IMG/VR virus record: IMGVR_UViG_3300002839_000259
Length of the DNA stretch: 54,833 nt
From: an uncultured virus (IMG/VR IMGVR_UViG_3300002839_000259)
Taxonomy: Duplodnaviria; Heunggongvirae; Uroviricota; Caudoviricetes
Direction: 5' to 3' (one strand)
This document shows, in pieces, positions 3,059-53,752 of the stretch (position 1 is the first letter of the stretch; every line of letters begins with the position of its first letter). Both the position numbers and the translations under genes were made by a program. The notes below the pieces were generated by a model. That model did no database searches, had not been told where the DNA came from, and was given only the letters and a program-made list of their open reading frames with translations.

Positions 3059-3475
3059 ATGACTAACATGACAGCCGAGCAAGCTTTGTACAACGCTGAA
3101 ATGAAAGCAAGGCAAAAAGCAACGCTTTTAGGGGCAACAAAAGACATTAAATCCGGTGATTTGTTCGCCGGTGAAGGTGGTGTTTTTACAGCGCCCGAAT
3201 TTTTTCAGGTCATTGAAAAAAAGGGTGAATTTGTAAAACTCCAAAAAATAAACCATCAAGAAACAAAGATTCCAACCCGATACGGTATTTGCATCACACC
3301 GCTAAAAAATGACTTTGCACCTGAATCAAAACCCATTCGTCGTAAACTTAAAAACCGTCGAATTGGCAACACATTGATCACAATGAATGATATTTATGTC
3401 GATGTGGTTGGTGAAGGTAGCACAACAGGTTTTAGCAAAATTAGCTGGGATTGCGACCAAATAGCGGAACGATAG
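3059..3475 (+). CDS. hypothetical protein
   Basis: ORF with AGAAAGTTGAG RBS. Confidence 0.7.
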   Translation: MTNMTAEQALYNAEMKARQKATLLGATKDIKSGDLFAGEGGVFTAPEFFQVIEKKGEFVKLQKINHQETKIPTRYGICITPLKNDFAPESKPIRRKLKNRRIGNTLITMNDIYVDVVGEGSTTGFSKISWDCDQIAER

Positions 3476-3504
3476 GTATTCAAAATAGAAAGTTGAGACA
3501 AAAA

Positions 3505-4068
3505 ATGACTGATTTAATAAAAATCTATCCGTTTAATCTGGCATTGCAAATTTTTGGACATACAGACGCCGTACAACGTGTTTATCTGCCAAATATTCCG
3601 GTCATTCTCGAAATATTAACCGATCGTGAGTATGAAATCATCAAACAACGATATGATGAGAAAAAAACATATCAGGAAATTGCTGACTTTCACAAGGTTA
3701 CCAGAACCCGCATTCGCCAAATTCATGACAATGCGTTACTGAAATTAAAAAAACCATTGCAAATGCAATTGATCACAGCCGTTTCTGAAAAAGAATGCAG
3801 CGATCGCATGAGACAAACAAATGAAGGCCTGCCAAACATAGTTAAACTACCAAACACAACAACTACTACTACAATTGATAGCTCAATTGAGCACCTAAAT
3901 TTATCGGCACGATGCTGCCGTAGTTTGCATCGTGCCGATAAAACAACGATTCGAGATCTAACTGGAATAAGCTATGCCGAATTAATTAAAATGCCAAGCA
4001 TAAGTCACATTACGGCTGAAGAAATCAGAACATCATTGGTGAAAGCAGGTTTTGCACTACATGATTAA
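3505..4068 (+). CDS. sigma70 region 4 fused to RNA polymerase alpha C-terminal domain
   Basis: LTDREYEIIKQRY...TYQEIADFHKVTRTRIRQIHDNALLKL (sigma r4) followed by SIEHLNLSARCCRSLHRADKTTIRDL...EL...AEEI (alphaCTD). Confidence 0.8.
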   Translation: MTDLIKIYPFNLALQIFGHTDAVQRVYLPNIPVILEILTDREYEIIKQRYDEKKTYQEIADFHKVTRTRIRQIHDNALLKLKKPLQMQLITAVSEKECSDRMRQTNEGLPNIVKLPNTTTTTTIDSSIEHLNLSARCCRSLHRADKTTIRDLTGISYAELIKMPSISHITAEEIRTSLVKAGFALHD

Positions 4069-5883: not shown

Positions 5884-6222
5884 ATGGCAAACTATTACTG
5901 CGGATTTCGATTATTAAAAAATACAAAAACTGATAAAGCAACTGCACATATACTCTTTGTGCAAGAATTGAGATATCATGGCCTGATTGACTGGCTATTT
6001 GATAAAACAACATTGAACTCAATAGGTGTCAAAGATGATATCGTGCATATTGATGAAGAAATGATTGATATTTCACTGAAACTACCAAACGTGTTACTCT
6101 GGGTTGATACCTATGCCGTCACCGAATCCGTCTGGCGAGATTATTATCTCAATGGCATCAGCTTAAACGTCGACGCGGTTACTATATTTCCGGAACCTGA
6201 AGACTGGTGGTTGGAACAATGA
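5884..6222 (+). CDS. hypothetical protein, paralog family A
   Basis: Close to 812..1198. Confidence 0.8.
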   Translation: MANYYCGFRLLKNTKTDKATAHILFVQELRYHGLIDWLFDKTTLNSIGVKDDIVHIDEEMIDISLKLPNVLLWVDTYAVTESVWRDYYLNGISLNVDAVTIFPEPEDWWLEQ

Positions 6223-6892
6223 TACCTAAACACAAAGGTAAATTAATCGTCATCGAAGGTGTTGACGGCAGCGGCAAACAGACACAGACCGAACTTTTAT
6301 ATGAACGACTGATCAAAGATGGTCAGAAAGTGATGCTCCTGTCGTATCCCAGATATGACAAAGAGTCGTCAGCTATGGTCAAATTATATCTCAGCGGAGC
6401 ATTCGGCGACAATCCCGCGGATGTCAGTCCATATATTGCGTCAACGTTTTACACAGCGGACCGCTATACGTCGTTTAAAGAGGATTATGAGGACTTTTTA
6501 AACGATGGCGGAATCGTATCGCCGATCGCTATACCACGTCTAATATGGTCCATCAGGCCGGTAAAATATATGATTCTGATGAACGTCAGCGATTTCTTGA
6601 CTGGCTGTGGGACTATGAATTTAACATTTTTGGACTGCCGGTCCCGGATCACGTGTTTTTCTTAAATATTCCCCCGGATGTGAATCAAATCCTGATGCAA
6701 GGTCGAGCAAATAAGATCACAGGCGAGGCCAAGCAAGATATTCATGAAAAAAGTTTAACACATTTGCAGGACTCTTATAATAGTGGTATGGAACTGGTCG
6801 AACAATATGGCTGGACCGAAATCAGCTGCATCAGTGATAATAAACTACGATCAATTCAAGATATTAATAACGAAATATTTAACAAAATATAA
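6219..6892 (+). pseudogene. tmk: thymidylate kinase, frameshifted near 6517 (or sequencing error)
   Basis: GKLIVIEGVDGSGKQTQ P-loop; restoring one base in GT_ATC gives GGIVIADRYTTSNMVHQ and joins both ORFs. Confidence 0.88.
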
Positions 6893-7744: not shown

Positions 7745-8134
7745 ATGAATACAATAAAAGTAACATACTATGATGGACCAGATGTTGTCATCGAGGATTC
7801 TGTTAAGCGAGATAAACACGATTACATCAAAGGCTATATACAAAACGAACTCGATCTTGAAGAAACAAATGGTATTGACGAAGGTGGTAATGAATCGTCG
7901 CATGATGCATTACTTTTTGCCATTGTCAATGCACAGCTTCGCATGGAAGCCGTTTGCGCTTACGCCGTAAAATTCAACGATATCACACGAAAAGAAGCTG
8001 ATGAATATCTTGAGTCATGCTACAAAATATTCAGTAAACGTGTTGGTGATTCCTGCGATCGAATTGAAGCAAAATATAGAATCGATCACCCGATGCCACC
8101 TGTTTTACCTGTTTCCGAAAATGAACCATTTTAA
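7745..8134 (+). CDS. hypothetical protein, paralog of the C-terminal part of 23534..24082
   Basis: AGGAG RBS; YI..YI.NE...EA.C.YAV shared. Confidence 0.7.
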   Translation: MNTIKVTYYDGPDVVIEDSVKRDKHDYIKGYIQNELDLEETNGIDEGGNESSHDALLFAIVNAQLRMEAVCAYAVKFNDITRKEADEYLESCYKIFSKRVGDSCDRIEAKYRIDHPMPPVLPVSENEPF

Positions 8135-8580
8135 TTTAAAAATCAGGGAAGCGACCGACGCCGCACACATGAAAGGTTTGCCATGAAAATTGAAAAAAAT
8201 ACATTTTTAGACCATCTGGAACTCCTCAACATCACACCTGTTAGATTTTTGGTTTGGTTTAGTTTAGGTTATGTCACAGCATTTGTTTTCAATATTTTTA
8301 CAACAATTAATTAAATAATAAAATAATGCTTTTTACCAGGGCGTGTTCATCCCCCTGGGCGCTAATATCTAAATCATATAATTAAAGCAGAACGTTAATA
8401 TAATGGTCTGCTTTTTTTGAATTAAAATTTAAAAATCAAGGAGCAAGAACATGATAACCGTGAGTATTGTCGTCGGTATCCGAGTGCTGTTATGCGTATT
8501 GAAATCCAAGAAAAAAAAACATACAAATGATCAATCTTGTTTGAATTAAAAAAAATCAAAACAGAAAGCGAGAAAACATT

Positions 8581-18040: not shown

Positions 18041-18299
18041 TGAATTGAGCCTTTCCATTTGGGATAGGCTCTTTTTTATATAAAAATAAGCACTCATGCA
18101 ATCATAGATTGCCGGGTGAATCCGAAATGTCAATTTAAAAAAGGACACAATTATTATTGCACTCTTTTTTCTGAGTCATGTGTGATAATATAAGCAATCA
18201 GGAATATTAAATGATCAAGAACGTGAGACATCATTATAAAAACAATAAAATCGTCCGGCGAAACTAATAAAAAATAATAGAAAGCGAGAAAGATATAAT

Positions 18300-21200
18300 A
18301 TGCAATTTCAAGATTTTACCAACCAATATGCGGTCAGCAAAACATTGAGTTTTGAGTTAATACCGCAAGGTCGAACATTAGAGCACGTTGAAGCAAAGGG
18401 TCTTTTGTCCGAAGATGAACACCGATCAGAAAGTTATAAAACGGTCAAAACCGTTATTGACCGATATCACAAACAATTTATTGAAGAAGCGCTCTCTGGT
18501 TTTGAGCTTGATGAGCTGGAAACATATCAAACGCTTTATAATATTGCCAATAAAACATCAGAAGATCAAAAATGTTTTATTGCTATACAAGACACCATGC
18601 GAAAATCAATCGTCAAACACATCAAACAACACCCTAAATTCAGCATCCTTGATAAAAAAGAACTCATCCGTGACGAATTATTCACATATTGTGAAAACGA
18701 CGCCGAAAAAGCGATGGTGTTGGAATTCTATAAATTCACAACCTATTTCAGCGGATTTAATGACAACCGAAAAAACATGTACAGCGATGAAGAAAAAAGC
18801 ACGGCTATTGCATATCGCATCGTCCATCAAAATTTGCCAAAATTTATTGACAATTTAAAAACTTTCAGTCTTATATCAAATGTATTATCCGAAAATATCA
18901 AAACGTTAAATACTGAACTGCAAAACGTTCTTGGTAACATGATCATCAATGATATCTTCGCTCTAAATTTTTTCAATCAAACACTGACACAAAAGGGGAT
19001 TGACAGATACAATACGCTGCTGGGTGGTTTTACCGATCAAAATAACCCAAAAAAGAAGATTAAAGGATTGAACGAATATATCAATCAATATAATCAAACA
19101 TTGCCAAAAACAGGTAAAATCGGAAAATTAAAGCCTCTATATAAGCAAATTCTCAGTGATCGCGAAAGTATTTCATTTTTGCCAGAAACACTGCAAACGG
19201 GACAAGACGTTTTAACTGCCCTTCGATGCTACTATGAGAGCAATCTAGCCGACGTGATCAACGAATACGGAAATGATGGTAAAACATTAAAAGAAGTATT
19301 CGAAAACTTATCCAACTATGACCTGTCTGGTGTATTTATCCGAAACGATGCTTCTATTGCTGACGTATCCCAAAAAATATTTGGCAACTGGAATATCATC
19401 CAACAAGCATTTGACCTTCGATATGATCAAACGTATACCGGCAAGAAATCTAAAAAACCTGAAAAATATGAAGACGAACGCAAAAAATATTTTAAAAATA
19501 TTCAAAGTTTTTCAATTGAGTCTATTAATGAGGCCCTGACCTATCTTAACGATAAAACTAAACATAAGCAAATCGAAAAATTCTTCAGCGGATTGGGCAT
19601 ACGTGAGAACAAAAATAATCTGATTACAATAATCAACAAGGCCTATGAAGACCTTGAAAAAGTGTTGGGAATACCTTATCCAACAGATAAAGAACTCTCA
19701 CAGGACACCCGAACTGTTGAAAAAATCAAAACATTTCTGGACAGTGTCAAAGCACTTCAATGGTTTACCAAACTCATTTTGGGAAAAGGTACTGAACCAA
19801 ACAAAGACTCACTGTTTTACGGTGACTTATTGCCACTATGGAATGAGATTGACAAAATTACGCCCCTTTATAACAGTATCCGAAATTACATGACAAAGAA
19901 ACCCTATTCCACAGAAAAGATTAAACTCAACTTTCAAAACGCAACGTTGCTGGCTGGCTGGGACGTCAATCAAGAACGAGCAAACACAAGTCTGATTTTC
20001 TTGAAGAACGGCCTGTACTATTTGGGAATTATGGATCAAGAATACAATAAAAGTTTCATCGATCTTCCTGTTCTACCGATGACAACAGCAGACGATGTTT
20101 ATCAGAAAATGGAATACAAACAATTGCCCGGTCCGGAAAAAATGCTACCCAAAGTGTTCTTTTCAAAAGCTCGAATTGATGAATTTGCACCATCAGAACG
20201 GGTTCTTGAAATATACAAAAACGGAACCTTTAAAAAAGGTGATGATTTCAAACTTGAAGATTGTCATGAACTGATTGAGTTTTATAAACGCGCAATCGCT
20301 CAACATCCCGCGTGGAATCAGTTTAATCACCAATTCTCAAAAACAAGCGCCTATCAAAATATCGGCGAATTTTATAATGATGTAAAACAACAAGGGTATA
20401 AAATCACTTATCGAGATGTGCCGGTAGAATACATGAATCAATTGATCAATGACGGACAACTATATTTGTTCCAAATTTATAACAAAGATTTTTCACCGCA
20501 CAGCAAAGGAACACCCAACATGCACACGTTATATTGGAAAATGATTTTTGATGAACAAAATTTGAATGACGTCGTTTATAAGCTTGATGGTGGCGCCGAA
20601 GTATTTTATCGCAAAGCCAGCCCTGGCATCAAAAAAACACCGACACACCCCAAGAATCAAGCAGTGGCTAACAAAAATCCACTCAACCCCAAAAAAGAAA
20701 GTATATTTGACTATGATTTGATTAAAAATAAACGATTTACGATGGATAAGTTTTTATTACATGTACCAATCAAAATGAATTTTAAGGCCAATCCCATGAC
20801 CAATCTCAATATGAGCGTGCGGTCTTATTTAAAAACACAGAGAAAAACCAATATCATTGGCATTCACCGTGGTGAACGCAATTTACTCTATGTCGCCGTC
20901 ATCAATGAAAAAGGTGAGATTCTGGAGCAACAGTCACTTAATACGATTATGAATAAAAACAACGACATCTCTCATACAACAGATTATCATGATCTTCTTG
21001 ATCGCAAGGAAAAAGAACGCGATACGGCCCGTAAAAACTGGCAGACGATCGAAAATATCAAAGAATTGAAGGAAGGATATCTCAGCCAGGTCATACATAA
21101 AATCACCCAGCTAATGGTTAAATATCAGGCAATCGTCGTGGTTGAAGATTTAGATATGGGATTTATGCAAGGCCGCCAGAAAGTTGAAAAGCAAGTTTAT

Positions 21201-22052
21201 CAAAAATTTGAAAAAATGCTAATCAGTAAGCTTCAGTATTTGGTAGACAAGAAAGCACCGATCAAGCAACCCGGCGGATTGCTTAAAGCCTTGCAATTGA
21301 CTAAAAATGAAACAGCCGGCCAGGGAAAAAACAGCTATGAAAAACAGAATGGTTTTCTGTTTTATGTGCCTGCATGGAATACCAGCAGTATCGATCCCAC
21401 TACAGGGTTTGTAAATTTGTTCAAAAGCAGTGACTTGCGATACGAAAGCATTAATAAGTCTAAAACATTTATCAATCTGATCGATAAAATGCAATATAGC
21501 ACAAGTGCTCAGCATTTTGAATTTAATATTGATTATGACAAGTTTACGGAAAAAGCGCAAGGGACGCGCACTGATTGGATGATTTGTACCCATGGCAAAC
21601 GCATCCGATCTTTCAGGAATGCGGAAACAAACAATCAATGGTGCACTGAAGAAATAGACCTCACACAAGCTTTTAGACAATTATTAGACGATAACGAAAT
21701 TGACTATCAATCGCAAACACTGAAAGAAGACATTCTACAAATGAACACCAGGGCTTTCTTTGTTGCGTTTCTGGATATCTTCAGGCTAATACTCCAATTA
21801 AGAAACAGAAAAGAAAACGGTGATTATCTAATCTCGCCCGTTAAAAATTCAACTGGTGAATTCTTCGATAGTCGTGATAAAAGAAATGGTCTGCCTGAAA
21901 ATGAAGACGCAAATGGTGCTTATAATATTGCCAGAAAAGGCGCCTGGATAATCGACGCGATCAAAGATGCCGATGATGACAAACTAAACAGAGTAAAAAT
22001 GACCATGTCTAATAAAGATTGGTTAACCTATGCCCAAGCCCATTTAATTTAA
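18300..22052 (+). CDS. cas12a: Cas12a (Cpf1), type V-A effector with RuvC-I catalytic Asp replaced by His (H856); predicted DNase-dead
   Basis: 1250 aa; FTNQY.VSKTL.FELIPQG, FTTYF.GF..NRKNMYS, KMLPKVFF, LYLFQIYNKDFS, KVEKQVYQKFEKMLI, DANGAYNIARKG; IIGIHRGERNLLY instead of IIGIDRGERNL. Confidence 0.96.
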   Translation: MQFQDFTNQYAVSKTLSFELIPQGRTLEHVEAKGLLSEDEHRSESYKTVKTVIDRYHKQFIEEALSGFELDELETYQTLYNIANKTSEDQKCFIAIQDTMRKSIVKHIKQHPKFSILDKKELIRDELFTYCENDAEKAMVLEFYKFTTYFSGFNDNRKNMYSDEEKSTAIAYRIVHQNLPKFIDNLKTFSLISNVLSENIKTLNTELQNVLGNMIINDIFALNFFNQTLTQKGIDRYNTLLGGFTDQNNPKKKIKGLNEYINQYNQTLPKTGKIGKLKPLYKQILSDRESISFLPETLQTGQDVLTALRCYYESNLADVINEYGNDGKTLKEVFENLSNYDLSGVFIRNDASIADVSQKIFGNWNIIQQAFDLRYDQTYTGKKSKKPEKYEDERKKYFKNIQSFSIESINEALTYLNDKTKHKQIEKFFSGLGIRENKNNLITIINKAYEDLEKVLGIPYPTDKELSQDTRTVEKIKTFLDSVKALQWFTKLILGKGTEPNKDSLFYGDLLPLWNEIDKITPLYNSIRNYMTKKPYSTEKIKLNFQNATLLAGWDVNQERANTSLIFLKNGLYYLGIMDQEYNKSFIDLPVLPMTTADDVYQKMEYKQLPGPEKMLPKVFFSKARIDEFAPSERVLEIYKNGTFKKGDDFKLEDCHELIEFYKRAIAQHPAWNQFNHQFSKTSAYQNIGEFYNDVKQQGYKITYRDVPVEYMNQLINDGQLYLFQIYNKDFSPHSKGTPNMHTLYWKMIFDEQNLNDVVYKLDGGAEVFYRKASPGIKKTPTHPKNQAVANKNPLNPKKESIFDYDLIKNKRFTMDKFLLHVPIKMNFKANPMTNLNMSVRSYLKTQRKTNIIGIHRGERNLLYVAVINEKGEILEQQSLNTIMNKNNDISHTTDYHDLLDRKEKERDTARKNWQTIENIKELKEGYLSQVIHKITQLMVKYQAIVVVEDLDMGFMQGRQKVEKQVYQKFEKMLISKLQYLVDKKAPIKQPGGLLKALQLTKNETAGQGKNSYEKQNGFLFYVPAWNTSSIDPTTGFVNLFKSSDLRYESINKSKTFINLIDKMQYSTSAQHFEFNIDYDKFTEKAQGTRTDWMICTHGKRIRSFRNAETNNQWCTEEIDLTQAFRQLLDDNEIDYQSQTLKEDILQMNTRAFFVAFLDIFRLILQLRNRKENGDYLISPVKNSTGEFFDSRDKRNGLPENEDANGAYNIARKGAWIIDAIKDADDDKLNRVKMTMSNKDWLTYAQAHLI

Positions 22053-22168
22053 CTTTTACCCAAAAAATGCAAACCAGCGTCTTAATATTTGATGGCGGTG
22101 GTTTGTATAAACAAAAAATCAGCAACATCAAATCCATTGAATGTTGCAATCATGATATCAAATTCAAA

Positions 22169-22197
22169 TTGCTATTAACTTGTAAAAATGTTAAAAT
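22169..22197 (+). promoter_or_regulatory. sigmaA-type promoter for the CRISPR array
   Basis: TTGCTA-N17-TAAAAT with TGn extension; predicted +1 at about 22204, inside repeat 1. Confidence 0.65.
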
Positions 22198-22202
22198 AAG
22201 GC

Positions 22203-22865
22203 TGTAAAAAATAATAACAAATGTCTACTGTCGTAGATGCTACCCATCACATCTACTTGAGGGGTGTAAATATAATAACAAATGTCTACTGTTGTAGATA
22301 CTCCGATATTTGCACATCTTTCAGTATGTAAAGATATTAATAAATGTCTACTATTGTAGATTACAACCAACTGTTCAAAATTACCTGAATATAAAGATAA
22401 TACTGTTTATCTACTATCGTAGATAAACAGTAACACATTTTGCAAAAATTCATGTGAAAATGCTAATAAATGTCTACTATTGTAGATTGGTCAAGTGTTG
22501 CGTAATGTGTTGCATGTAAAGATAATAACAAATGTCTACTGTTGTAGATCAAAAGGCCTTCATATAAATTCCCCAGATGTAAAGATAATAATAAATGTCT
22601 ACTGTTGTAGATGAAGATGAGTACAGAAAAGCTAAAAGATGTAAAGATAATAACAAATGTCTACTATTGTAGATCCCTTGACGCTCTTAGACTCAATTTC
22701 CTATCCAAAGGTGATAACAAATGTCTACTGTTGTAGATAAAAGAATGTTGGAATGAGATGAACTGATTCAAAGATATTAACAAATGTCTACTATTGTAGA
22801 TTCAACCTTATCGATCATATTAACAATATGTGTAAAGGTAATAACAAATGTCTACTGTTGTAGAT
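22203..22865 (+). CRISPR. type V-A array: 11 repeats of 36 nt, 10 spacers of 25-28 nt, possible trailing spacer after repeat 11
   Basis: Consensus ATGTAAAGATAATAACAAATGTCTACTRTTGTAGAT; repeats end at 22238, 22299, 22361, 22424, 22487, 22549, 22612, 22674, 22738, 22801, 22865. Confidence 0.97.
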
Positions 22866-22945
22866 GTAATATGCCAAGATAAGTTCTAAAAAAGTTCATA
22901 AATCCCATGGTAAAGCCATTTTAAAAATTAAAGAAGCATATAATC

Positions 22946-22984
22946 AAAAAGAGTGTACTGCCACATCGGCGGTACACTCTTTTT
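22946..22984 (+). terminator. intrinsic terminator closing the cas12a/array unit (member of a family also near 1581, 7604, 8952, 9575, 10172, 16470, 28960, 36050, 49510, 53755)
   Basis: AAAAAGAGTGTACTGCC-ACATC-GGCGGTACACTCTTTTT. Confidence 0.85.
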
Positions 22985-23073
22985 GATAGAGGTGTTATCA
23001 TAAACAACAAGCAATCGCGGATTGCCGGGATCACAATTAATAAGAAAATTCTAAAATAAAAAGGGGAATATAT

Positions 23074-23502
23074 ATGCGAAATTTTGAAATTCGTTTTATA
23101 AATTTAATGGATTATAAAACCGACGCTGAAATCAAAGCCAACGTAATCGAAATGATGGAGCACCATAGGGATATAAAGGCTATTTCGGGCAAAATAAGCG
23201 GTGTTTTGTTCATAAGCGACCACGAAGATGATTCTACTGGAAAAACGGCGCATACGTGTCTCTTGCATGGTAGAAACATGCTTGAGAGCGTCAATCACGA
23301 TTTTGATCGTTATCAGGATCAATTATTGAGGATCTTTGGTGTTGACGTGGCGATCATTCAGATTCATTCAAAAATTGGCCAGACACTCAGTATTGCCCAT
23401 CATAATAATCGATCAAGCATGATCCACCTGCGACCAGGCTTTGACGGTCCCCAGATTCTGGCTACGCCAGATGTAATATGTAACGTTTCAATTAAACTTT
23501 AA
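23074..23502 (+). CDS. hypothetical protein, close paralog of 51326..51745
   Basis: M.NFEIRFINL...TDAEI.ANV...GFDGPQI..TPDV.C. Confidence 0.8.
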   Translation: MRNFEIRFINLMDYKTDAEIKANVIEMMEHHRDIKAISGKISGVLFISDHEDDSTGKTAHTCLLHGRNMLESVNHDFDRYQDQLLRIFGVDVAIIQIHSKIGQTLSIAHHNNRSSMIHLRPGFDGPQILATPDVICNVSIKL

Positions 23503-25386: not shown

Positions 25387-25416
25387 AAAACTAAATACAG
25401 AAAGGTGTTGCTGATC

Positions 25417-25854
25417 ATGTACTCAGTATTCGACATAGCTAATTATATTTTGCAGCAATATGAAGCCAAAAATCTCAAAATTAATAATTTGAAACTGCAA
25501 AAAATCTTGTACTATATTCAAATTAATGCATTGCAAAAACACGATCAACCACTATTCCAAGAACCCATTGAAATGTGGTGGGGTGGCGGCAATGTGCCAA
25601 AATTATACTTCGAATTGCAGAAATACGTCTGTACACCCATTCATCCTGATGACAGTTGTTTCACTGATGCTAAACCAATCAATGATTTTGATAAAGAAAT
25701 TATTCAAGAAATTATTGACAAAACGCTTGATAAAAAAGATTTGGAATTAGTGACATCGATCCAAGCAACACAATTATATAAAGATTATTTTGTGACAGGT
25801 GTGCGACACCCGATCAACCATCGAGATTTAAAAAATGGCGAAATAAATATCTAA
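25417..25854 (+). CDS. Panacea (DUF4065/SocA-like) antitoxin-domain protein, orphan
   Basis: YSVFDIANYIL...INNLKLQKILYYIQ...PLF.E.IE.W..G..VP.LY. Confidence 0.85.
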   Translation: MYSVFDIANYILQQYEAKNLKINNLKLQKILYYIQINALQKHDQPLFQEPIEMWWGGGNVPKLYFELQKYVCTPIHPDDSCFTDAKPINDFDKEIIQEIIDKTLDKKDLELVTSIQATQLYKDYFVTGVRHPINHRDLKNGEINI

Positions 25855-25874: not shown

Positions 25875-26606
25875 ATGTCACTTTTACCAGCGAATATTCA
25901 CCCGTCATGGGAACCACTTTTGTCGAAAAATTTTATTAATAACCTGGCTACGATCGAAAACGAATTAAACAAATTGCCGATCCACACTGATTCTAAGCAT
26001 TCATATTTTCCGGAAAAGGAAAACGTCATGCGTTTTTTGCAGCAAGATCTAGCAAACCTCAAATATATTATACTGGGTATGGACCCGTACCCGTCATGGT
26101 ATACCTTGGATGACGGGATTCATCCTGTTGCAACCGGGCGCAGCTTTGAGATTGGCAACGTCAACAGCTGGCAGCAAAAATTTAAGCAAAATTCGCTCCA
26201 GAACATTGTCAAAACAATTTATTATAATAAAACAGGCAGAAAACTCAGCTTATCTGAAATTCGCAACAAATTAGAAGAAAATAAATTTATTCTCAGTCCG
26301 CCGCACCAATGGTTTGATCAGATCGAACAGCAGGGTGTTTTGTTTTTGAATGCAACGCTGACGGTTACGCCCGGTTGCCCTGATTCACACACCAACTTGT
26401 GGCAACCCATTATGACTGAAGTTATTCAATATATTAATGAACATCACACTGTCAAGTGGTTATTATTTGGCGATAAAGCCCAAAAACGTATTTTGAACGC
26501 TCTTGGCTGCGATTATCCGGATCATGCATGTTGTCATCCGCGACTTTCACGATTTGTTGATGCAAATATTTTTAAATTGGCGTCTGATATCAATTGGTGT
26601 ATCTGA
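25875..26606 (+). CDS. ung: uracil-DNA glycosylase (family 1-like)
   Basis: IHPSW, ILGMDPYP, ATGRSF, QGVLFLNATLTV..G...SH...W, HP. Confidence 0.88.
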   Translation: MSLLPANIHPSWEPLLSKNFINNLATIENELNKLPIHTDSKHSYFPEKENVMRFLQQDLANLKYIILGMDPYPSWYTLDDGIHPVATGRSFEIGNVNSWQQKFKQNSLQNIVKTIYYNKTGRKLSLSEIRNKLEENKFILSPPHQWFDQIEQQGVLFLNATLTVTPGCPDSHTNLWQPIMTEVIQYINEHHTVKWLLFGDKAQKRILNALGCDYPDHACCHPRLSRFVDANIFKLASDINWCI

Positions 26607-27929: not shown

Positions 27930-28190
27930 AAAATACCACCTCCAAACGAATGCGAAGTGGCTAACCGCCTACCTATTTACAGCAACACCTTGTCTGTTAT
28001 TATATCATGTATGGCATGGCAAAGCCATTAAAAAAGAAAGTGACTTATTCAAAACATTATTCGTCAGTACATTGCTCTTTGACATAAAAGACATATGACT
28101 CATCAGTGTATTGCCAGCTAGTGTTAATCAGCATTTTTTATTGTTTTATAGTTTCTAAAAACAATAATATAAACGAAAGTGAGGAAGAAA

Positions 28191-28925
28191 ATGGCAAATT
28201 CAAAAACAGCAGGCGAGGTAAAATTGAGATACGGTCTCACTGATGCAAATAAAATTATATGCATTTCGGAATTATCAAAAGAAAATAGAGAAAAAAACGG
28301 CGATTTTTATTGCCCAAATTGCAAATCACCCTTGGTAGCAAAAATGGGCAATAAAAACCAACGACATTTTGCACATAAAAATGCAGATTGCAATAATTCC
28401 AGCGCCAATGAAACCGCGTTACACATGCTTGCAAAAGAAATATTAGTAGCAAATATGAAAATAACTATCCCAGCTTATGAAATTTCTGGGGAAGAATACT
28501 ATACTATGGCTGAGGGGCCATTCTATGATGATTTGGGATATGATGTTTATGGCGAATTGCTAGATAATTTTAAGTATAGTGATGCTCTGGAAATAAAGTT
28601 TGACGAAGTAATCTCAGAAAAGAAAATTGGTGAGATTGTGCCCGATATACTATTGATGGTTGGCAAAAAACAGCTTATTATTGAAATAGCCGTGACACAT
28701 TTTGTGGATGATGAAAAATTAGATAGAATTAAAAAACTAAATATTTCCGCAATAGAAATTAATTTAAGCGCAATTAAAAACAAGGAATTAAAGAGAGAAG
28801 AAATTGAAAATCTAATAATCACTGACGTAAAGTATAAAACATGGCTGCATAACATTAAACATGATAAAGCATTGTTAAATCTCACAGAAAGAAACAGAGA
28901 TATTTGTGCAAAATATTATATGTGA
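28191..28925 (+). CDS. CoiA-like Zn-finger / PD-(D/E)XK nuclease-domain protein
   Basis: FYCPNC...HFAH, ETALH..AK, PDI...IIEIAVTH. Confidence 0.75.
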   Translation: MANSKTAGEVKLRYGLTDANKIICISELSKENREKNGDFYCPNCKSPLVAKMGNKNQRHFAHKNADCNNSSANETALHMLAKEILVANMKITIPAYEISGEEYYTMAEGPFYDDLGYDVYGELLDNFKYSDALEIKFDEVISEKKIGEIVPDILLMVGKKQLIIEIAVTHFVDDEKLDRIKKLNISAIEINLSAIKNKELKREEIENLIITDVKYKTWLHNIKHDKALLNLTERNRDICAKYYM

Positions 28926-29439: not shown

Positions 29440-30839
29440 ATCTTTCGCAAGGAGGCACGGCAATTCAATTGCCGCGAGGAATTGCGGTTATTATCACGTT
29501 TTTTTGTTAGTTTTTTGCAATAAATTAAGCAGATCTTCAATAAAATGTGATATAATTAATTATAGTGAAGAAAGGATGTGTTTAACAATGGAGCAGACAT
29601 TGACGGCAAAAATACAAATTTATCCAACGGATGCAATTTGTTTATCATTTATTGAAACCATGAATGCCTATCGCAACGCCTGTAATTATGTTGCTAGACA
29701 TGTTTTTGTCACGCGTTGTTTGAAACAACATGATATTCAGAAAGTGACGTATGCCAATTTGCGAGCAGACTACGGTCTTCGTTCGCAAATGGCAATTTCT
29801 GTTATTCGCACGGTAATTGGCAAATATAAAACCATTTTAGAGAATCAGCATGAATGGATTGAACCGTTGTTTAAAAACCCACAATTAGACCTGGTCTGGA
29901 ACCGAGATTATTCGCTGACGCGAAACGGTTTGTTCTCGGTTAATACGTTAACCGGTCGTGCTCAGGTGGCTTTTGCCACCAAAGGCATGGAACATTATTT
30001 TGATGGGTTCTGGAAATTTGGTACGGCCAAGCTTGTATACAAACATGCAAAATGGTTCTTACATATTCCCTGCACCCAAACACTACCCGAATGCGACACA
30101 ACCAACGTCAATAACGTGGTCGGCACCGATTTTGGTATGAATTTTCTGACCACCAGTTATGACAGCGATGGCAAAACAGCATTTGTTTCCGGTCGTTTTG
30201 TCAAAGCTAAACGGGCGCACTATCAGAAAGTCCGCAAGTCATTGCAACAACGCAAAACGCCGTCAGCCAGACGACGCTTAAAGAGAATCGGGCAACGAGA
30301 AAACCGTTGGATGCACGATGTTAATCATCAGGCATCAAAGGCACTCGTTACAACCCATGGACCGGACACATTGCATATTCTCGAAGACCTCACCGGGATT
30401 CGTACGGTGACAGAGAAAGTCAAACTGAAACAGCGTTATTATTCAGTCAGCTGGGCATTTTATGATCTGCGTAAGCTAATCGAATATAAAGCCATTCGCA
30501 TTGGGGCGATGACCATGGCCGTACAGCCAGCTTATACCTCGCAGACCTGTCCTAAATGTGGTCATACCGAAACATCCAATCGTAATAAAAAGAATCATAC
30601 ATTTATTTGCAAAACGTGTGGCTATCAGTCAAATGATGACCGTGTCGCTGCTATGAATCTGCACCGCAAGGGAATTGAGTACCTGAGTGCAGTGATCTGA
30701 GGTTATAAACCAAAAGATCCGGGGTGCTGTCAACCACCCCAGGATGTAACCCCAACGCAAGGTAGGAGGTTCTATTTTTAGAACCGCTCGCACTACTGGG
30801 GAGTTACAAGCTCGGTAATTCAATTACTGAGTCGTTGAC
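29440..30839 (+). mobile_element. IS200/IS605-family (IS1341-like, tnpB only) element; left boundary approximate
   Basis: Left hairpin CACGGCAATTCAATTGCCGCG; matching right hairpin CTCGGTAATTCAATTACTGAG ending GTTGAC; no tnpA. Confidence 0.8.
29588..30700 (+). CDS. tnpB: RNA-guided endonuclease TnpB, catalytic triad intact
   Basis: VVGTDFG (D), LEDLTGIR (E), YTSQTCPKCGH...CKTCG Zn finger, NDDRVAAMNL (D). Confidence 0.93.
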   Translation: MEQTLTAKIQIYPTDAICLSFIETMNAYRNACNYVARHVFVTRCLKQHDIQKVTYANLRADYGLRSQMAISVIRTVIGKYKTILENQHEWIEPLFKNPQLDLVWNRDYSLTRNGLFSVNTLTGRAQVAFATKGMEHYFDGFWKFGTAKLVYKHAKWFLHIPCTQTLPECDTTNVNNVVGTDFGMNFLTTSYDSDGKTAFVSGRFVKAKRAHYQKVRKSLQQRKTPSARRRLKRIGQRENRWMHDVNHQASKALVTTHGPDTLHILEDLTGIRTVTEKVKLKQRYYSVSWAFYDLRKLIEYKAIRIGAMTMAVQPAYTSQTCPKCGHTETSNRNKKNHTFICKTCGYQSNDDRVAAMNLHRKGIEYLSAVI

Positions 30840-44958: not shown

Positions 44959-45312
44959 ATGTCAAAATATTATTATGGATTTGAGTTGTCTGAAAATACA
45001 AAACAAACAGAATCTCAAGTGAAAGAAAAACTGCGAATTCTATTAAAACAAAAAGAACTAGACGATCAAGTTTTTGATCAGGCGTCAAACAATGCTGATG
45101 TGATTGTTAAAAATGAATTTGATAAAATATGGGTTGAAGATATCTTCACTGATATATCAACGCTGATTCCTGGAGCATTGTTATACCTGGATGTTTACAC
45201 CGATGAAAATGAAATTTATCGAATGTATGCGCAAAACGGTGAGAGACAATATATTGATGCCACTATCAGTTTTAAAAAACCGTCGAAATCTCCAGCTGAC
45301 TGGGTGTCATAA
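44959..45312 (+). CDS. hypothetical protein, paralog family A
   Basis: MSKYYYGF...DIS..IP...LY.DVY...NGERQY.DATI.F. Confidence 0.75.
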   Translation: MSKYYYGFELSENTKQTESQVKEKLRILLKQKELDDQVFDQASNNADVIVKNEFDKIWVEDIFTDISTLIPGALLYLDVYTDENEIYRMYAQNGERQYIDATISFKKPSKSPADWVS

Positions 45313-45329
45313 AAAACAACCTTCAAGTG

Positions 45330-45571
45330 CCTGTGTATGGTCATCCAAAGGGGTAGTGTTTGACGAAACCATTATTGCGGCTGAAGATCGGGCACTAATT
45401 AATACTGTAATTAAAGATGCCCGTGATTATTCGAACAGCACGCTTGTGGACATCACCCGGAAGCAGACTCCGTGGCTAAATAGTTATTCAAAAAACAAAA
45501 CGAATGTCATCAGTACACAGTTGATTAGACATTATTTTTTAGAAAAAAATAAATTAAGAAAGGGAAATTAA
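45330..45571 (+). pseudogene. C-terminal remnant of a second Panacea/SocA-like gene
   Basis: LINTVI....DYS.S.LVDIT.KQTPW..SY.....NVIS...IR.YF; no proper start. Confidence 0.55.
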
Positions 45572-45923: not shown

Positions 45924-46160
45924 TATGGTATTGCGACAGCTGTTTTTTCAGATGTCTTTTTAAAAAATAAGAAAGTGAGAAAATCATGACAATTGAAGAA
46001 GCTCAAAAAAGAATGGACACCGATGCAAAATTTCAGTCTTTTGTCGAAATATACTGCATGATGCAAATGCATGATACCCGAGAAAATATTGATTTAGATA
46101 CAATTCTTCCGGAATTGGTCAATGTCTATGATTCACTAAAATAAGAAAGTGAGCAAAAAT

Positions 46161-46979
46161 ATGACTCAATTTATCCAAATCGCAATCGATGGTCCGGCCG
46201 CTGCCGGAAAAAGCACCCTGGCGAAACAAATTGCCGAAAACTATGGTTTTACCTATTTAGATACAGGCGCCATGTACAGGTGCGTCGCCTATCAGGTGCT
46301 GCAAAATTTTAGCGCCTGGCCCAACAACAACGCGATCATTCGTGTTGCCGACGAAACCGAGATTCGATTTGTTAATCAACAAATCATCTGCAATAAGCAA
46401 AATATCACTGAGTTCATTCGCACCCAAGCAGTCTCCCAGGGCGCATCCGATGTGGCTGTAATTAAAGGTGTCAGGCAAATACTGGTGGCGCAACAACAAG
46501 AGTATGCCAAAGCGACTTCTGTTGTTATGGAAGGCCGTGATATCGGATCGGTTGTACTTCCGAATGCAGATCTTAAGTTTTATTTAACAGCTGATATCAA
46601 TGAACGTGCACTCAGGCGCAAAAAAGAAAACGGCGAAAAAGATTTGCATGATATAATCATTGATATTCAAAAACGCGACGACAATGACCGCAATCGAGCC
46701 GATGATCCGCTGATTATTGTCGATGATGCGATTGTCATCGATAATACTGACAAAACAATTGAAGCCGTTTATGCTGAGATGCAACAGCATATTGATTTAA
46801 AAATCAAAGAAAAAGCAGATGCTTTGTGGCACTTTGCAACACATCACTATGCGTCAAAAGACTTTCCTGGTGCGGCATCACGAAGTGGCGTACTTCGTGC
46901 TGAAGCGATGAGCAAAACCACCAGAGAGACCTATTTTACAGCAAGCGATCTCATCGATAAGATGTCGTCAGAAAATTAA
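46161..46979 (+). CDS. cmk: cytidylate kinase with C-terminal extension
   Basis: IAIDGPAAAGKST, YLDTGAMYR, VMEGRDIGSVVLP.A.LK.YLTA...RA.RR, RD.ND.NR...PL. Confidence 0.95.
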   Translation: MTQFIQIAIDGPAAAGKSTLAKQIAENYGFTYLDTGAMYRCVAYQVLQNFSAWPNNNAIIRVADETEIRFVNQQIICNKQNITEFIRTQAVSQGASDVAVIKGVRQILVAQQQEYAKATSVVMEGRDIGSVVLPNADLKFYLTADINERALRRKKENGEKDLHDIIIDIQKRDDNDRNRADDPLIIVDDAIVIDNTDKTIEAVYAEMQQHIDLKIKEKADALWHFATHHYASKDFPGAASRSGVLRAEAMSKTTRETYFTASDLIDKMSSEN

Positions 46980-49666: not shown

Positions 49667-50041
49667 ATGAATGATTATATTGTAACAAAAATTGATGGAG
49701 ATAAACGATACGACCAATTAATTTCACTGACGGACTATGAAATTCCTATTACGACCAGCATCAAAACAATCAAACTGCCTAACTGCGCTAACAAAATGGT
49801 ACTGATTGATACATCCTTGTGCTCTGGAATAACACCCTATCGGTTCATTGAAACAACAGTAGATGAATGTGGTACAATGAATTTGAGCCAACACCACTAC
49901 GTAAGATCGGGTCTTGACCCCAACGTGGTTACGCTTGCCAACAAAGTGTTGGCAGAAAATAAAATTCATATCGACAGTTCAATACTAACGACATCACAAA
50001 TCAAAAAAGTAATAAACAATACGGCGTCACAAAATACTTGA
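49667..50041 (+). CDS. RnlB-like antitoxin, orphan
   Basis: T.YE.P, VLID..L.SG...RF, SSIL...QI.KV pattern aligns by eye with E. coli RnlB (TGFENPL, ILFDLLCANG...RF, ASVLS...VRQV). Confidence 0.6.
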   Translation: MNDYIVTKIDGDKRYDQLISLTDYEIPITTSIKTIKLPNCANKMVLIDTSLCSGITPYRFIETTVDECGTMNLSQHHYVRSGLDPNVVTLANKVLAENKIHIDSSILTTSQIKKVINNTASQNT

Positions 50042-50378: not shown

Positions 50379-50450
50379 TTTTTGGTAGCTTAGTAGGTTA
50401 AAGCTCTCGGGATGCGAAAAAGATATTGGTTCGAATCCAGTGCGGAAAAA
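50379..50450 (+). ncRNA. tRNA-like RNA 2 (D and T arms intact; anticodon arm degenerate)
   Basis: TAGCTTAGTAGGTTAAAGC and ATTGG-TTCGAAT-CCAGT. Confidence 0.55.
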
Positions 50451-51091: not shown

Positions 51092-51325
51092 TATTTTGTC
51101 AAAAATATAATAACAGAAAATGAGAACTAGAGATATGTGCCAAACAATTGAAAAAACGTGCGAAACATGCAATCATCATGACTTGAAATTAAGTGATGAA
51201 CCTTGTAAGAAGTGTTGCAGAAATGAGCGCACCGTCGGTGGTAATTACGGAAAATGGAAAACTAAAGAAAAAACCAAAAATCATGAGTGTGAATTAATAA
51301 TCAACAGAAAGTGAGAACTAAAATT

Positions 51326-51745
51326 ATGCAAAATTTTGAAATTCGCTTCATCAATCTGTGCCATTTTGAAACCGACGCAGAGATTCAGGCCAACGTGGCT
51401 GACATGATGCTCAATCATACCGACATAAAGGCCATTTCTGCCCAAATAATCGGTGTTTTGTTTATTATCGATTATGAAGACGCCATCACCGAAAAAATGG
51501 TGCATAATTGCCTTCTCAACGGCAGAACCATGCCAGAGAACATAAATCACTCGCTTAATCATTATCAAGACCAATTATTAAATCGATTTGGCGCCGATGT
51601 CGCCGTCACTGATATTCAATCAACCATCGGACAAAAATTAATCTTGGTGCATCACCAAGGCCGATCGAATATAATACAGTTGCAACGCGGTTTTGACGGT
51701 CCGCAAATTACGGTTACGCCAGATGTTGTCTGCCCCGCCATTTAA
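51326..51745 (+). CDS. hypothetical protein, close paralog of 23074
   Basis: High by-eye similarity to 23074..23502. Confidence 0.8.
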   Translation: MQNFEIRFINLCHFETDAEIQANVADMMLNHTDIKAISAQIIGVLFIIDYEDAITEKMVHNCLLNGRTMPENINHSLNHYQDQLLNRFGADVAVTDIQSTIGQKLILVHHQGRSNIIQLQRGFDGPQITVTPDVVCPAI

Positions 51746-53243: not shown

Positions 53244-53483
53244 ATGACAAACATAAATGCCACTAATTTACGAAAAAATTTATTTGAATATCTAAATTCA
53301 GCCGTTGAATATAATGATGTGATTAATGTAAACACCAAAAAAGGCAATGCGGTTATCATCAGTGAAGAAGATTATAACAGCATGTTAGAAACGATTTATC
53401 TGATCAGCATACCTGGAATGAAAGAACGCTTGGATGAAGGCGTTGTGCTCCGTGGCGAGGATTGTGAGGATTTTAAATGGTAA
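53244..53483 (+). CDS. yefM: Phd/YefM antitoxin
   Basis: NATNLRKNLF...TKKGNAVIISEEDYN...ET.YL.SIPGM. Confidence 0.9.
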   Translation: MTNINATNLRKNLFEYLNSAVEYNDVINVNTKKGNAVIISEEDYNSMLETIYLISIPGMKERLDEGVVLRGEDCEDFKW

Positions 53484-53752
53484 AAGGATATCGAATAGTT
53501 ATCTCAAAAGCCGCCCAGAAAGATAAGGGTAAGATTAAAGAAATCCCCGTCCTCAAACGGAATGCCGAGAAGCTAATTCGAGTCCTAGAGGAGAACCCCT
53601 ATCAAAACCCACCGTCATATGAAAAGTTGAGCGGTAAATATAAAGATCTCTATTCTCGACGTATTAATCAGCAACATCGGCTAGTTTACAAGGTCGACGA
53701 AGATAAAAAAGTGGTTATAATCATCAGCATGTGGTCCCATTATGAGTTTTGA
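53477..53752 (+). CDS. yoeB: Txe/YoeB toxin
   Basis: NPYQ.PP.YEKL.G...YSRRINQQHRLVY.V...ISMWSHY. Confidence 0.92.
   Translation: MVKGYRIVISKAAQKDKGKIKEIPVLKRNAEKLIRVLEENPYQNPPSYEKLSGKYKDLYSRRINQQHRLVYKVDEDKKVVIIISMWSHYEF

Follow-up and report, generated by a model that had tools for sequence, protein, structure and literature searches.

Cas12a is among the most used genome-editing enzymes, and a dead form of it has been made in the laboratory for multiplex repression. Natural nuclease-inactive Cas12a has also been reported: Rybarski 2021 (bioRxiv 10.1101/2021.08.16.456562) describes proteins, only ∼24% identical to AsCas12a, in which Asp908, an essential Mg ligand in AsCas12a, has become Ile and the three pre-crRNA (precursor CRISPR RNA) processing residues of the WED domain are kept. 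Their genes have atypical self-targeting spacers and lie next to an Rpn-like PDDEXK gene and genes for nucleic-acid enzymes, and the authors read such Rpn-associated loci as possible non-Tn7 CRISPR-associated transposons (CASTs); the same preprint gives inactivating changes in 8% of Cas12 genes. Here we describe a cas12a gene with its own CRISPR array in a 54,833-nt stretch of peat-derived DNA from an uncultured virus (IMG/VR record IMGVR_UViG_3300002839_000259). This stretch, called the window below, is the terminal 55 kb of a 228,044-nt contig, and the Cas12a it encodes has a His in place of the RuvC-I catalytic Asp.

The locus resembles the Rpn-associated Cas12a in that the RuvC-I Asp is gone, the three WED processing residues are present, cas1 and cas2 were not found, and the gene lies among mobile-element genes. 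It differs in the replacing residue (His, not Ile), in having no Rpn-like gene among the 68 open reading frames (ORFs) scanned against Pfam, which include every + strand ORF of at least 200 aa, and in having no self-targeting spacer in the window. A preliminary description, made from the letters of the window alone, had presented the locus as a naturally nuclease-dead Cas12a; the novelty is smaller than was assumed there, given the nuclease-inactive Cas12a with WED residues reported in 2021. A literature search with subscription journals and preprint supplements outside its range gave no paper on the His variant or on phage-borne dead Cas12a, and Rybarski 2021 was the only paper on a natural dead Cas12a that it returned.

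Other relatives are further removed. RuvC inactivation arose many times in type V, in V-C, V-M, V-O, V-P and Cas12b3 (2025 classification, PMC12669027), and a dead V-A is not mentioned in the passages of that classification drawn on here. Cas12m (V-M) and Cas12c (V-C) have a non-canonical RuvC and interfere by binding (PMC12669027, PMC10442227, PMC11013384), as we propose for the window protein, but they are of other subtypes, sizes and guide architectures, and they have been assayed, whereas the role of ours is proposed from sequence. Cas12k, of the V-K CAST, and TldR exemplify repeated domestication of a RuvC-dead RNA-guided binder, which the window protein may also be. Cas12k, however, works with the Tn7-like TnsB, TnsC and TniQ, not found among the scanned ORFs, and TldR, a small protein derived from TnpB, has just one fixed guide. 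Engineered dCas12a and ddCas12a, used for multiplex CRISPR interference, belong to the same family, are disabled at the same residue position and process their own arrays, which is what allows multiplexing; they carry a man-made Asp to Ala change, whereas the window protein has an evolved His together with dozens of changes in PI and RuvC/Nuc.

Viral Cracr arrays, finally, have degenerate repeats and steer host Cas12a to repress its own promoter (Liu et al., bioRxiv 10.1101/2024.10.29.618823); that preprint's text uses neither the term dCas12a nor the term RuvC. Cracrs are like the window array in lying on mobile elements, in having repeats reduced to a ∼20-nt handle and in guides that bind without cutting, the last being a proposal in our case. 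One window guide, spacer 6, also resembles a V-A regulatory region, but without the protospacer-adjacent motif (PAM) TTTV; the mark of a Cracr guide is a stretch of at least 9 PAM-proximal nt that matches a cas promoter next to a PAM. Cracrs have no cas gene of their own, and partial matches of ∼10 PAM-proximal nt beside TTTA stop the host nuclease from cutting; the window has its own, presumably disabled, Cas12a, and PAM-flanked promoter matches of its guides were not in excess in 80 Cas12a loci.

Set beside canonical Cas12a (LbCas12a, FnCas12a, ReChb), the locus has the same protein domains, the same 36-nt repeat with a UCUACU...GUAGAU handle, the processing His/Lys/Lys and the lysine of LPKV. 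It departs from the canonical form in the RuvC-I His, in changes at N952, K1030, A1202 and the RNS motif, in Gln for K558, in the 5′-degenerate repeats, and in that no cas4-cas1-cas2 was found with it.

RESULTS

A Cas12a with histidine at the RuvC-I catalytic position

The cas12a gene occupies window positions 18300..22052 on the + strand and encodes 1250 aa. The Cas12a model TIGR04330 (cas_Cpf1) matched residues 3-1247 with 1394 bits, where 300 is the cutoff. The five Cas12a domains of Pfam (REC1, REC2, PI, RuvC_1 and NUC; entries PF18501, PF21918, PF22222, PF18516 and PF18510, in no set order) all scored above cutoff, and the protein aligned over its full length to solved Cas12a chains (E-value 0), with 53% identity to ReChb. 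The CAC codon at 20865..20867 (+) encodes His856, which stands in the sequence IIGIHRGERN and aligns with the Asp of IGIDRGER in the solved LbCas12a and ReChb chains. The RuvC triad therefore reads His856-Glu949-Asp1203 where Asp-Glu-Asp is expected. The preliminary description had called attention to this substitution, to drift in the neighbouring motifs (EDLD, TSSIDP, RN-R with a 2-residue gap, and NEDANG) and to the retained processing residues and PAM lysine; the ORF translation, the chain alignment and the homologue alignment agree with it on each of these. The near-invariant residues N952, K1030 and A1202 are also changed, and altogether 34 of 368 near-invariant positions are altered, compared with at most 13 in active homologues except P0012 (36).

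The residues H783, K792 and K809 (in THP, ANKN and LIK) are invariant in 116 of 116 close active homologues. Together with K618 of LPKV, they align with LbCas12a H759, K768, K785 and K595, of which we take the first three to be pre-crRNA processing residues and K595 to be the PAM lysine. As judged from these positions, the capacity to process pre-crRNA appears to have been kept. The PAM itself is a different matter. The residue at position 558, Lys in 115 of 116 active relatives, is Gln both in the window protein and in the one close relative described below, and Q558 aligns with LbCas12a K538, presumably a PAM-reading residue and one that is altered in PAM-variant enzymes. Because of this replacement and of 14 changes in PI, the PAM of the window Cas12a is likely to differ from TTTV.

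His856 is genuine and the gene is under purifying selection

Contigs from four peat-metagenome runs cover the CAC codon with zero differing letters; runs X1 and X2 are possibly the source sample, while X3 (record 7) and X4 (record 16) are separate assemblies. One close relative, L003, was found in a scan of metagenomes. Its Cas12a is 80% identical to that of the window and has the same IIGIHRGERN, with the His encoded by CAT, synonymous with the CAC of the window. L004 is the same 8.4-kb element as L003 from another sample, with 0 differences in 8370 nt. The change from Asp to His thus marks a clade, as the preliminary description had asked, albeit a small one composed of the window and this one relative. 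A GAC codon, the reading that would have undone the claim, was looked for in the reads-derived contigs and in close homologues and was not seen. In other collections, tblastn with the window Cas12a gave no match among GenBank phage records and just two distant Butyrivibrio plasmid Cas12a genes among plasmids. The Cas12a loci found in IMG/VR (L001 and L002) both have a normal triad, and a second lineage with a broken triad (P0071; see below) was not found in IMG/VR.

Over 1243 codons, the window and L003 genes differ by a nonsynonymous divergence (dN) of 0.115, with synonymous divergence (dS) saturated at 3.8 and above 1.2 in every computable domain. The low dN against a saturated dS means that the gene is strongly constrained and, taken with the synonymous CAT in L003, that His856 is neither an error nor a product of decay. 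The lowest values of dN were those of PI (0.066) and WED-III (0.067), followed by RuvC-I/II (0.099), REC1 (0.129), Nuc (0.136), REC2 (0.139) and RuvC-III (0.150). The non-canonical RuvC site is thus kept under purifying selection.

Changes on the stem of the His lineage were counted at 852 sites conserved in 113 outgroup sequences. The stem carried 82 changes at these sites, against 17 in the Asp-bearing sister pair (P0003 and P0004). The share of conserved sites changed was highest in PI (19%), then RuvC-III (15%), RuvC-I/II (12%) and Nuc (11%), and was 6% in REC1 and in REC2. Relative to REC plus WED, the enrichment had an odds ratio of 2.0 for RuvC plus Nuc (p 0.009) and 3.4 for PI (p 0.0009), whereas the sister pair had no such domain bias (p 1.0). 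The pattern on the stem of a lineage with an Asn-Glu-Glu triad was like that of the His lineage. Relaxation of RuvC and Nuc, but not of REC, WED and PI, had been proposed as a mark of the nuclease-dead state. The first part holds on the stem; however, PI was enriched most, and within the lineage RuvC and Nuc are constrained like REC. In short, the parts that cut DNA and read the PAM bore the brunt of a burst of change and then came under constraint again, which looks like a change of function rather than decay.

The array has drifted outside the crRNA handle

The CRISPR array, found by repeat detection at 22203..22893 (+), is made up of 36-nt repeats, 11 in all; ten of its guides are bounded spacers of 25-28 nt and the 11th is unbounded. 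The repeats span 22203-22865 with a period of 61-64 nt. The cas12a gene lies directly upstream, a linkage kept in L003. The repeat places a UCUAC-loop-GUAGA handle upstream of each spacer, co-oriented with cas12a; all 11 repeats have an unbroken 5-bp stem, TCTAC/GTAGA, and its hairpin is the minimum-free-energy fold. The repeats agree at a mean pairwise identity of 0.92 over their 3′ 20 nt, against 0.74 over the 5′ 16 nt, the part of the repeat that Cas12a trims away. Of the 11 changed positions within the handle, seven are in the loop; the remainder fall within the five bases 5′ of the stem, and nearly all of these belong to repeat 4. In L003 a lipoprotein-like ORF separates two arrays, one with 5 repeats and one with 4; the L003 repeats have drifted more strongly (5′ identity 0.29-0.46, against 0.85-0.96 in the handle), and no spacer is common to L003 and the window. 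Across the runs and samples seen, the arrays are identical.

By comparison, 56 arrays beside a normal Cas12a had a median 5′ identity of 1.0, with four below 0.9. Drifted arrays were seven of the 17 without a cas1 match and one of the 43 with cas1, the seven being the four rows of L003/L004, which are one element, and those of L006, L060 and L077, which have a normal triad. From the association with cas1 and these three normal-triad loci, we take drift to mark arrays no longer renewed by adaptation, and not dead effectors. In each of the three (L006 9829, L060 4415 and L077 7021), an Asp-Glu-Asp Cas12a has its array within ∼130 nt of the stop codon, no cas1 match and 5′-degenerate repeats; stand-alone, non-adapting Cas12a modules thus exist with an intact nuclease too.

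Although synonymous sites are saturated, the window and L003 agree at 81% of their 150-nt leader. A stem-loop just 3′ of the cas12a stop codon (22067..22108, +; −20 kcal/mol, z-score −5.2) has blocks that are kept in L003, as are both hexamers of a sigma-70-type promoter-like site, TTGCTA-17-TAAAAT with a TG, detected by consensus scan directly upstream of repeat 1 (22169..22197, +), which may serve as the promoter of the array. Handle, stem and leader are therefore under selection; the array is very probably expressed and loaded, and it looks like an array that is used but no longer renewed.

A stand-alone, probable transcription unit with no adaptation genes found

The cas12a gene and array form a stand-alone unit framed by two terminators and two copies of a hairpin-CGG motif, and the unit is headed by the copy at 18098, as had first been noticed from the sequence. 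An intrinsic-terminator-like hairpin with a T-run, read in the sequence at 18047..18077 (+), ends the upstream unit. The motif GCAATCATAGATTGCCGGG follows at 18098..18116 (+); it folds at −11.4 kcal/mol and would be the start signal of the cas12a unit. On the far side of the array, a strong intrinsic terminator at 22945..22985 (+; −29.4 kcal/mol, z-score −9.1, then a T-run) closes the unit, and the next motif copy, placed by motif scan and context at 23011..23029 (+), heads the following one.

The motif is not confined to this unit. In its general form, GCAATCNNNGATTGCCGGG, it has 12 matches in the window against 0.02 expected, of which 11 are on the + strand and intergenic (positions 1627, 9014, 10231, 17172, 18098, 23011, 31114, 40329, 40763, 50541 and 53829). 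At these 11 copies the layout is the same: an intrinsic terminator, the motif and, 40-180 nt on, a ribosome-binding site and start codon. A longer box, ATCACAATTGATAAGAAAATTCTAAAATA, is common to four hairpin-CGG copies and lies downstream of the motif. The motif is probably an element-specific promoter or RNA 5′-end signal.

A cas4-cas1-cas2 set is usual, although not universal, in V-A loci. The claim that the window lacks cas1, cas2 and cas4 was upheld: none was found in the 54.8 kb by the Pfam scan of the 68 ORFs, and tblastn against the window with Cas4, Cas1 and Cas2 of the Asp-bearing sister locus L007 gave noise only. L007, the nearest Asp-bearing locus available, has cas12a, cas4 (a weak Pfam match), cas1, cas2 and identical repeats, and the sister-cluster member behind it is labelled Acetobacterium sp. 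by its source.

Broken RuvC triads recur in the Cas12a family

The closest homologues of the window protein were taken as the best 120 of 4,190 proteins with an E-value of at most 1e-50 among 8,000 candidates. The triad is Asp-Glu-Asp in 116 of the 120 listed, all 116 thus having the RuvC-I Asp. The four exceptions are the window protein itself, P0002 (His-Glu-Asp), and P0039 and P0071 (both Asn-Glu-Glu). All four fall within one well-supported group of seven, in which the His pair is sister to three Asp-bearing proteins. Common to the four are H644F, the loss of K1030, a change at A1202 and the 2-residue gap in the RNS motif. The best tree separates the His and Asn lineages, but a single clade for the two was not rejected by the approximately unbiased test (p 0.079).

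A wider survey used one representative per 50%-identity cluster, of which 139 of the best 150 listed were full length (at least 1100 aa). The triad is substituted in 21 of these 139 representatives, a share that is perhaps somewhat inflated by the ranking of the list by likeness to a broken query. With the window protein there are 22 broken proteins. Their RuvC-I residue is Ser in six, Thr in four, His in three, Asn in three, Lys in two and Ala in one, with Asp kept in three. The RuvC-III residue is Ala in four, Glu in one and Tyr in one, with Asp kept in 16, and the RuvC-II Glu is kept in 22 of 22. On a tree of 146 proteins, the broken state requires at least 11 changes, at least nine of them forced by well-supported branches; shuffled labels need a mean of 23 changes, and 0 of 500 shuffles matched the observed 11.

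Guide-processing residues fared differently from the nuclease residues in these proteins. The processing His is kept in all 22, the first processing Lys in 20 (with Arg in the other two) and the second Lys in 21, whereas the Nuc Arg, present in 118 of 118 intact proteins, is kept in 13 of the broken proteins and lost in nine. This is the signature that would be expected of repeated loss of cutting with guide handling retained. Among them the window protein is mildly affected: a single triad residue has changed, and it still has the Nuc Arg.

Probable binding without cutting, or possibly a rewired nuclease

On balance, we think it probable that the locus encodes a Cas12a that processes guides and binds DNA without cutting it, kept by a mobile element with a fixed set of guides. 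In such a system the RuvC DNase would be off, or nearly so, through replacement of the metal-bridging RuvC-I Asp by His, while pre-crRNA cutting by the WED domain, holding of the 20-nt handle, PAM reading and R-loop formation would all be retained. The cas12a gene and array would be transcribed as one terminator-bounded unit, and the array also from its own conserved promoter. Up to 11 crRNAs would direct the protein onto matching DNA, which would stay uncut, and the bound protein would block transcription or replication at the target, to the benefit of the element. We infer the loss of cleavage, the DNA binding and the silencing from the pattern of substitution and constraint given above.

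A number of points weigh against this reading. Glu949, Asp1203 and the Nuc residue Arg1168 are all kept. Through A1202E, Asp1203 has gained a carboxylate as its neighbour, encoded by GAA in both members of the lineage. His is able to bind metal ions and, as far as we are aware, Asp to His at the RuvC-I site has never been assayed. Within the His lineage, RuvC and Nuc are as constrained as REC (dN 0.10-0.15 against 0.13-0.14), and both domains must therefore still matter, as scaffold or as enzyme. The His clade rests on one independent relative (L003 being the same element as L004), and a protospacer was found for none of the 11 guides in the searches made.

The first of these points bring up the possibility that the nuclease has been rewired or attenuated and is not dead, with His856, Glu949, Asp1203 and Glu1202 binding metal, perhaps Mn or another transition metal, and an activity such as nicking, slow cutting or cutting of single-stranded DNA in trans. 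Besides the two kept triad residues and the Nuc Arg, it would explain Glu1202, a lineage-specific acidic neighbour of Asp1203 that is absent from the other broken lineages (position 1202 being A, T, G, I, M, V, P or L there, never Glu), as well as the purifying selection on RuvC and Nuc and the persistence of the His through a synonymous change. Natural rewiring of the RuvC site has also been discussed for Fanzor. However, the same site is N, S, T, K or A in other lineages and the Nuc Arg is lost in nine of the 22 broken proteins, suggesting plain loss of function as the usual path, and in the window protein the near-invariant K1030 and N952 are lost too. Moreover, both metals of RNase H-fold nucleases are bridged by the first Asp, and we know of no such nuclease with His as its first residue. 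We regard a rewired nuclease as unlikely, though it is the likeliest of the alternatives.

Spacer targets and a possible role against host V-A systems

Targets of the guides were sought in several collections. The spacers have no self-match in the window, 54.8 kb of the 228-kb contig, at up to 3 mismatches in the first 20 nt. A blastn search of the whole array against 50,697 phage records gave short AT-rich noise only (E-value at least 0.7), and exact 22-mers of spacers 1, 2, 5 and 8 (four of the 11 spacers) had 0 matches each in IMG/VR. No clean protospacer was present in the 399 genomes scored, of 401 from one class; the 10 weak matches obtained there (83-96% over 24-47 nt) all cross repeat/spacer borders or are purine-rich. 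When all 20 guides of the window and L003 were compared with 80 Cas12a loci, only a leader match of spacer 6 emerged. PAM-proximal seeds in the manner of Cracrs had 75 matches in the 80 loci, roughly the number expected by chance, and few of them lie beside TTTV.

The spacer 6 match concerns the first 19 nt of the spacer (22550..22576, +), which resemble a conserved motif of canonical V-A leaders, with 18, 18, 18, 17, 17, 17 and 15 of 19 nt matching in seven loci. The motif stands at a fixed place, 49-50 nt upstream of repeat 1 and just ahead of the apparent array promoter. By score alone, 106 of 300 shuffled spacer sets match as well somewhere in the 1.09 Mb searched; within the leader zone, 0 of 300 do, although this criterion was chosen after the match had been seen. 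Immediately upstream of the motif stands TCAT, CCCT or AGTA instead of TTTV, and the seven loci come from gut or rumen-type bacteria, not from peat. In species genomes the exact 19-mer occurs 15 times, one of them in a V-A leader, and none of these matches extends beyond 22 of 27 nt. The spacer 6 match is thus a lead only.

Canonical V-A arrays of gut-type bacteria (loci L018, L020, L025, L032, L043, L054, L068 and L082) have a conserved leader in common, which carries the palindrome CCTTTATATAAAGG 50 nt upstream of repeat 1 and, after it, a TAnnTTTG-like box. Separately, run X3 contains a 93-nt contig of ∼23x depth that aligns at window positions 22341-22363 and 22467-22487; it shares the 21-nt handle but differs in the 5′ part of the repeat and in the spacer. 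It shows another Cas12a-type array in the same habitat, which could be that of the host or of a rival element.

These observations bear on a special case of binding without cutting, in which the locus is an anti-CRISPR device against a host V-A system. Having the crRNA handle in common with the host, the dead Cas12a would sequester the host's crRNAs or sit on their targets, while the guides of its own array would repress host CRISPR promoters. The position of the spacer 6 match in the leader zone fits this, as does the X3 contig, which shows another array with the same handle in the habitat. There are also precedents: the viral degenerate-repeat arrays described above cause host Cas12a to silence its own promoter (Liu et al., bioRxiv 10.1101/2024.10.29.618823), and for a phage Cas9 whose RuvC is inactivated an anti-CRISPR role has been put forward (PMC12669027). 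Against it stand the post hoc leader criterion and the score-based control, the lack of TTTV beside the match, the gut or rumen origin of the matching loci, and the single V-A leader among the 15 exact 19-mers. Furthermore, PAM-flanked seed matches to cas12a promoters are not enriched, and the ten other guides are left unexplained. We consider an anti-CRISPR function of this kind doubtful. A still broader picture can be drawn, in which mobile elements have repeatedly (at least nine origins) turned Cas12a into a self-contained, non-cutting silencer, an unnamed V-A variant, which here would serve counter-defence by using the host crRNA handle, directing a guide at the V-A promoter-leader to shut down host crRNA production, and competing for host guides. 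As a whole this picture is speculative, and we would give it a small chance of being right.

The carrier element and its neighbouring genes

The window's long ORFs are almost all on the + strand, and its genes include those for a dCTP deaminase, nucleotide kinases, a sigma-region-4 protein, an RnlB-like antitoxin, a Panacea-domain protein and TnpB; one protein is 34% identical to a protein in Flavobacterium and Bacteroides phages. This content fits a large virus or another mobile element as the carrier of the cas12a unit, either of which is plausible. No structural genes were found in the window (54.8 kb of the 228-kb contig), and a 24-kb portion of it had no megablast match among plasmids.

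The flanks of L003 are unrelated to those of the window except for TnpB, which suggests that the cas12a-array module moves. The window TnpB (OrfB_IS605 and TNB domains) is encoded at 29504-30700, 7 kb downstream of the array, and its D, E and D residues look intact; the L003 copy (7798-8514, − strand), 73% identical to it, lies 3 kb from the L003 array. Such mobility would suit a module for RNA-guided homing or transposition, comparable to the Rpn-associated nuclease-inactive Cas12a, for which a non-Tn7 CAST was proposed (bioRxiv 10.1101/2021.08.16.456562). However, no member of the Rpn/Transposase_31, TnsB, TnsC or TniQ families is present among the 68 ORFs scanned (a CoiA_N match at 28179-28925 belongs to a family distinct from the Rpn-like PDDEXK/Transposase_31), no spacer matches the window at up to 3 mismatches in 20 nt, and the TnpB, with its own D, E and D residues, looks like that of an ordinary insertion sequence. 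A homing module is therefore very unlikely. That we see a relic, in which a defence locus was disabled not long ago and now drifts without any function, might be suggested by the missing adaptation genes, degenerate repeats and lack of targets found, but it is the least credible of the alternatives and close to refuted by the dN/dS of window and L003, the intact frame of 1243-1250 codons in both members at 20% protein divergence, and a crRNA handle, stem and leader promoter that were kept while flanking bases drifted.

Other features of the window were noted in passing. The first gene after the CRISPR unit (23074-23502) has a paralogue at 51311-51745, with 61% identity over 136 aa, and each of the two lies directly behind a hairpin-CGG motif. 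A dCTP deaminase (1688-2245), a thymidylate-kinase-like protein (6207-6665), a cytidylate kinase (25875-26606) and a protein like one annotated as a uracil-DNA glycosylase in Flavobacterium phages (46149-46979) form a set of nucleotide enzymes that could give the element altered nucleotide pools or modified DNA. An RnlB-type antitoxin (49667-50041), two SocA/Panacea-domain proteins (25405-25854 and 45191-45571) and a YoeB/ParE-type toxin (53477-53752) are probably counter-defence or addiction genes of the element. The ORF at 3451-4068 combines a sigma-70 region 4 domain and an RNA polymerase alpha C-terminal domain in one protein, an unusual pairing, and its product may serve the element's own promoters. 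A tRNA match to Rfam at 50379-50449 (+) scored 31.6 bits (gathering score 29), and ARAGORN gave no tRNA in the window.

DISCUSSION

The dead Cas12a that was engineered for the laboratory appears to have been made many times in nature and to have been kept under selection on mobile elements. If binding without cutting is indeed what the broken lineages do, it would be a common strategy in the conflict between mobile elements and their hosts, extending beyond Cas12m, Cas12c, Cas12k and TldR. The broken lineages would then be evolved binder variants with changed PI domains and probably changed PAMs, and the question would arise of what their fixed guide sets regulate. As a by-product, the family count is the most valuable outcome: 21 of the 139 representatives listed, with at least nine origins. 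It is a testable claim for CRISPR classification, and to it belongs that broken Cas12a proteins always have the processing His but have often lost the Nuc Arg.

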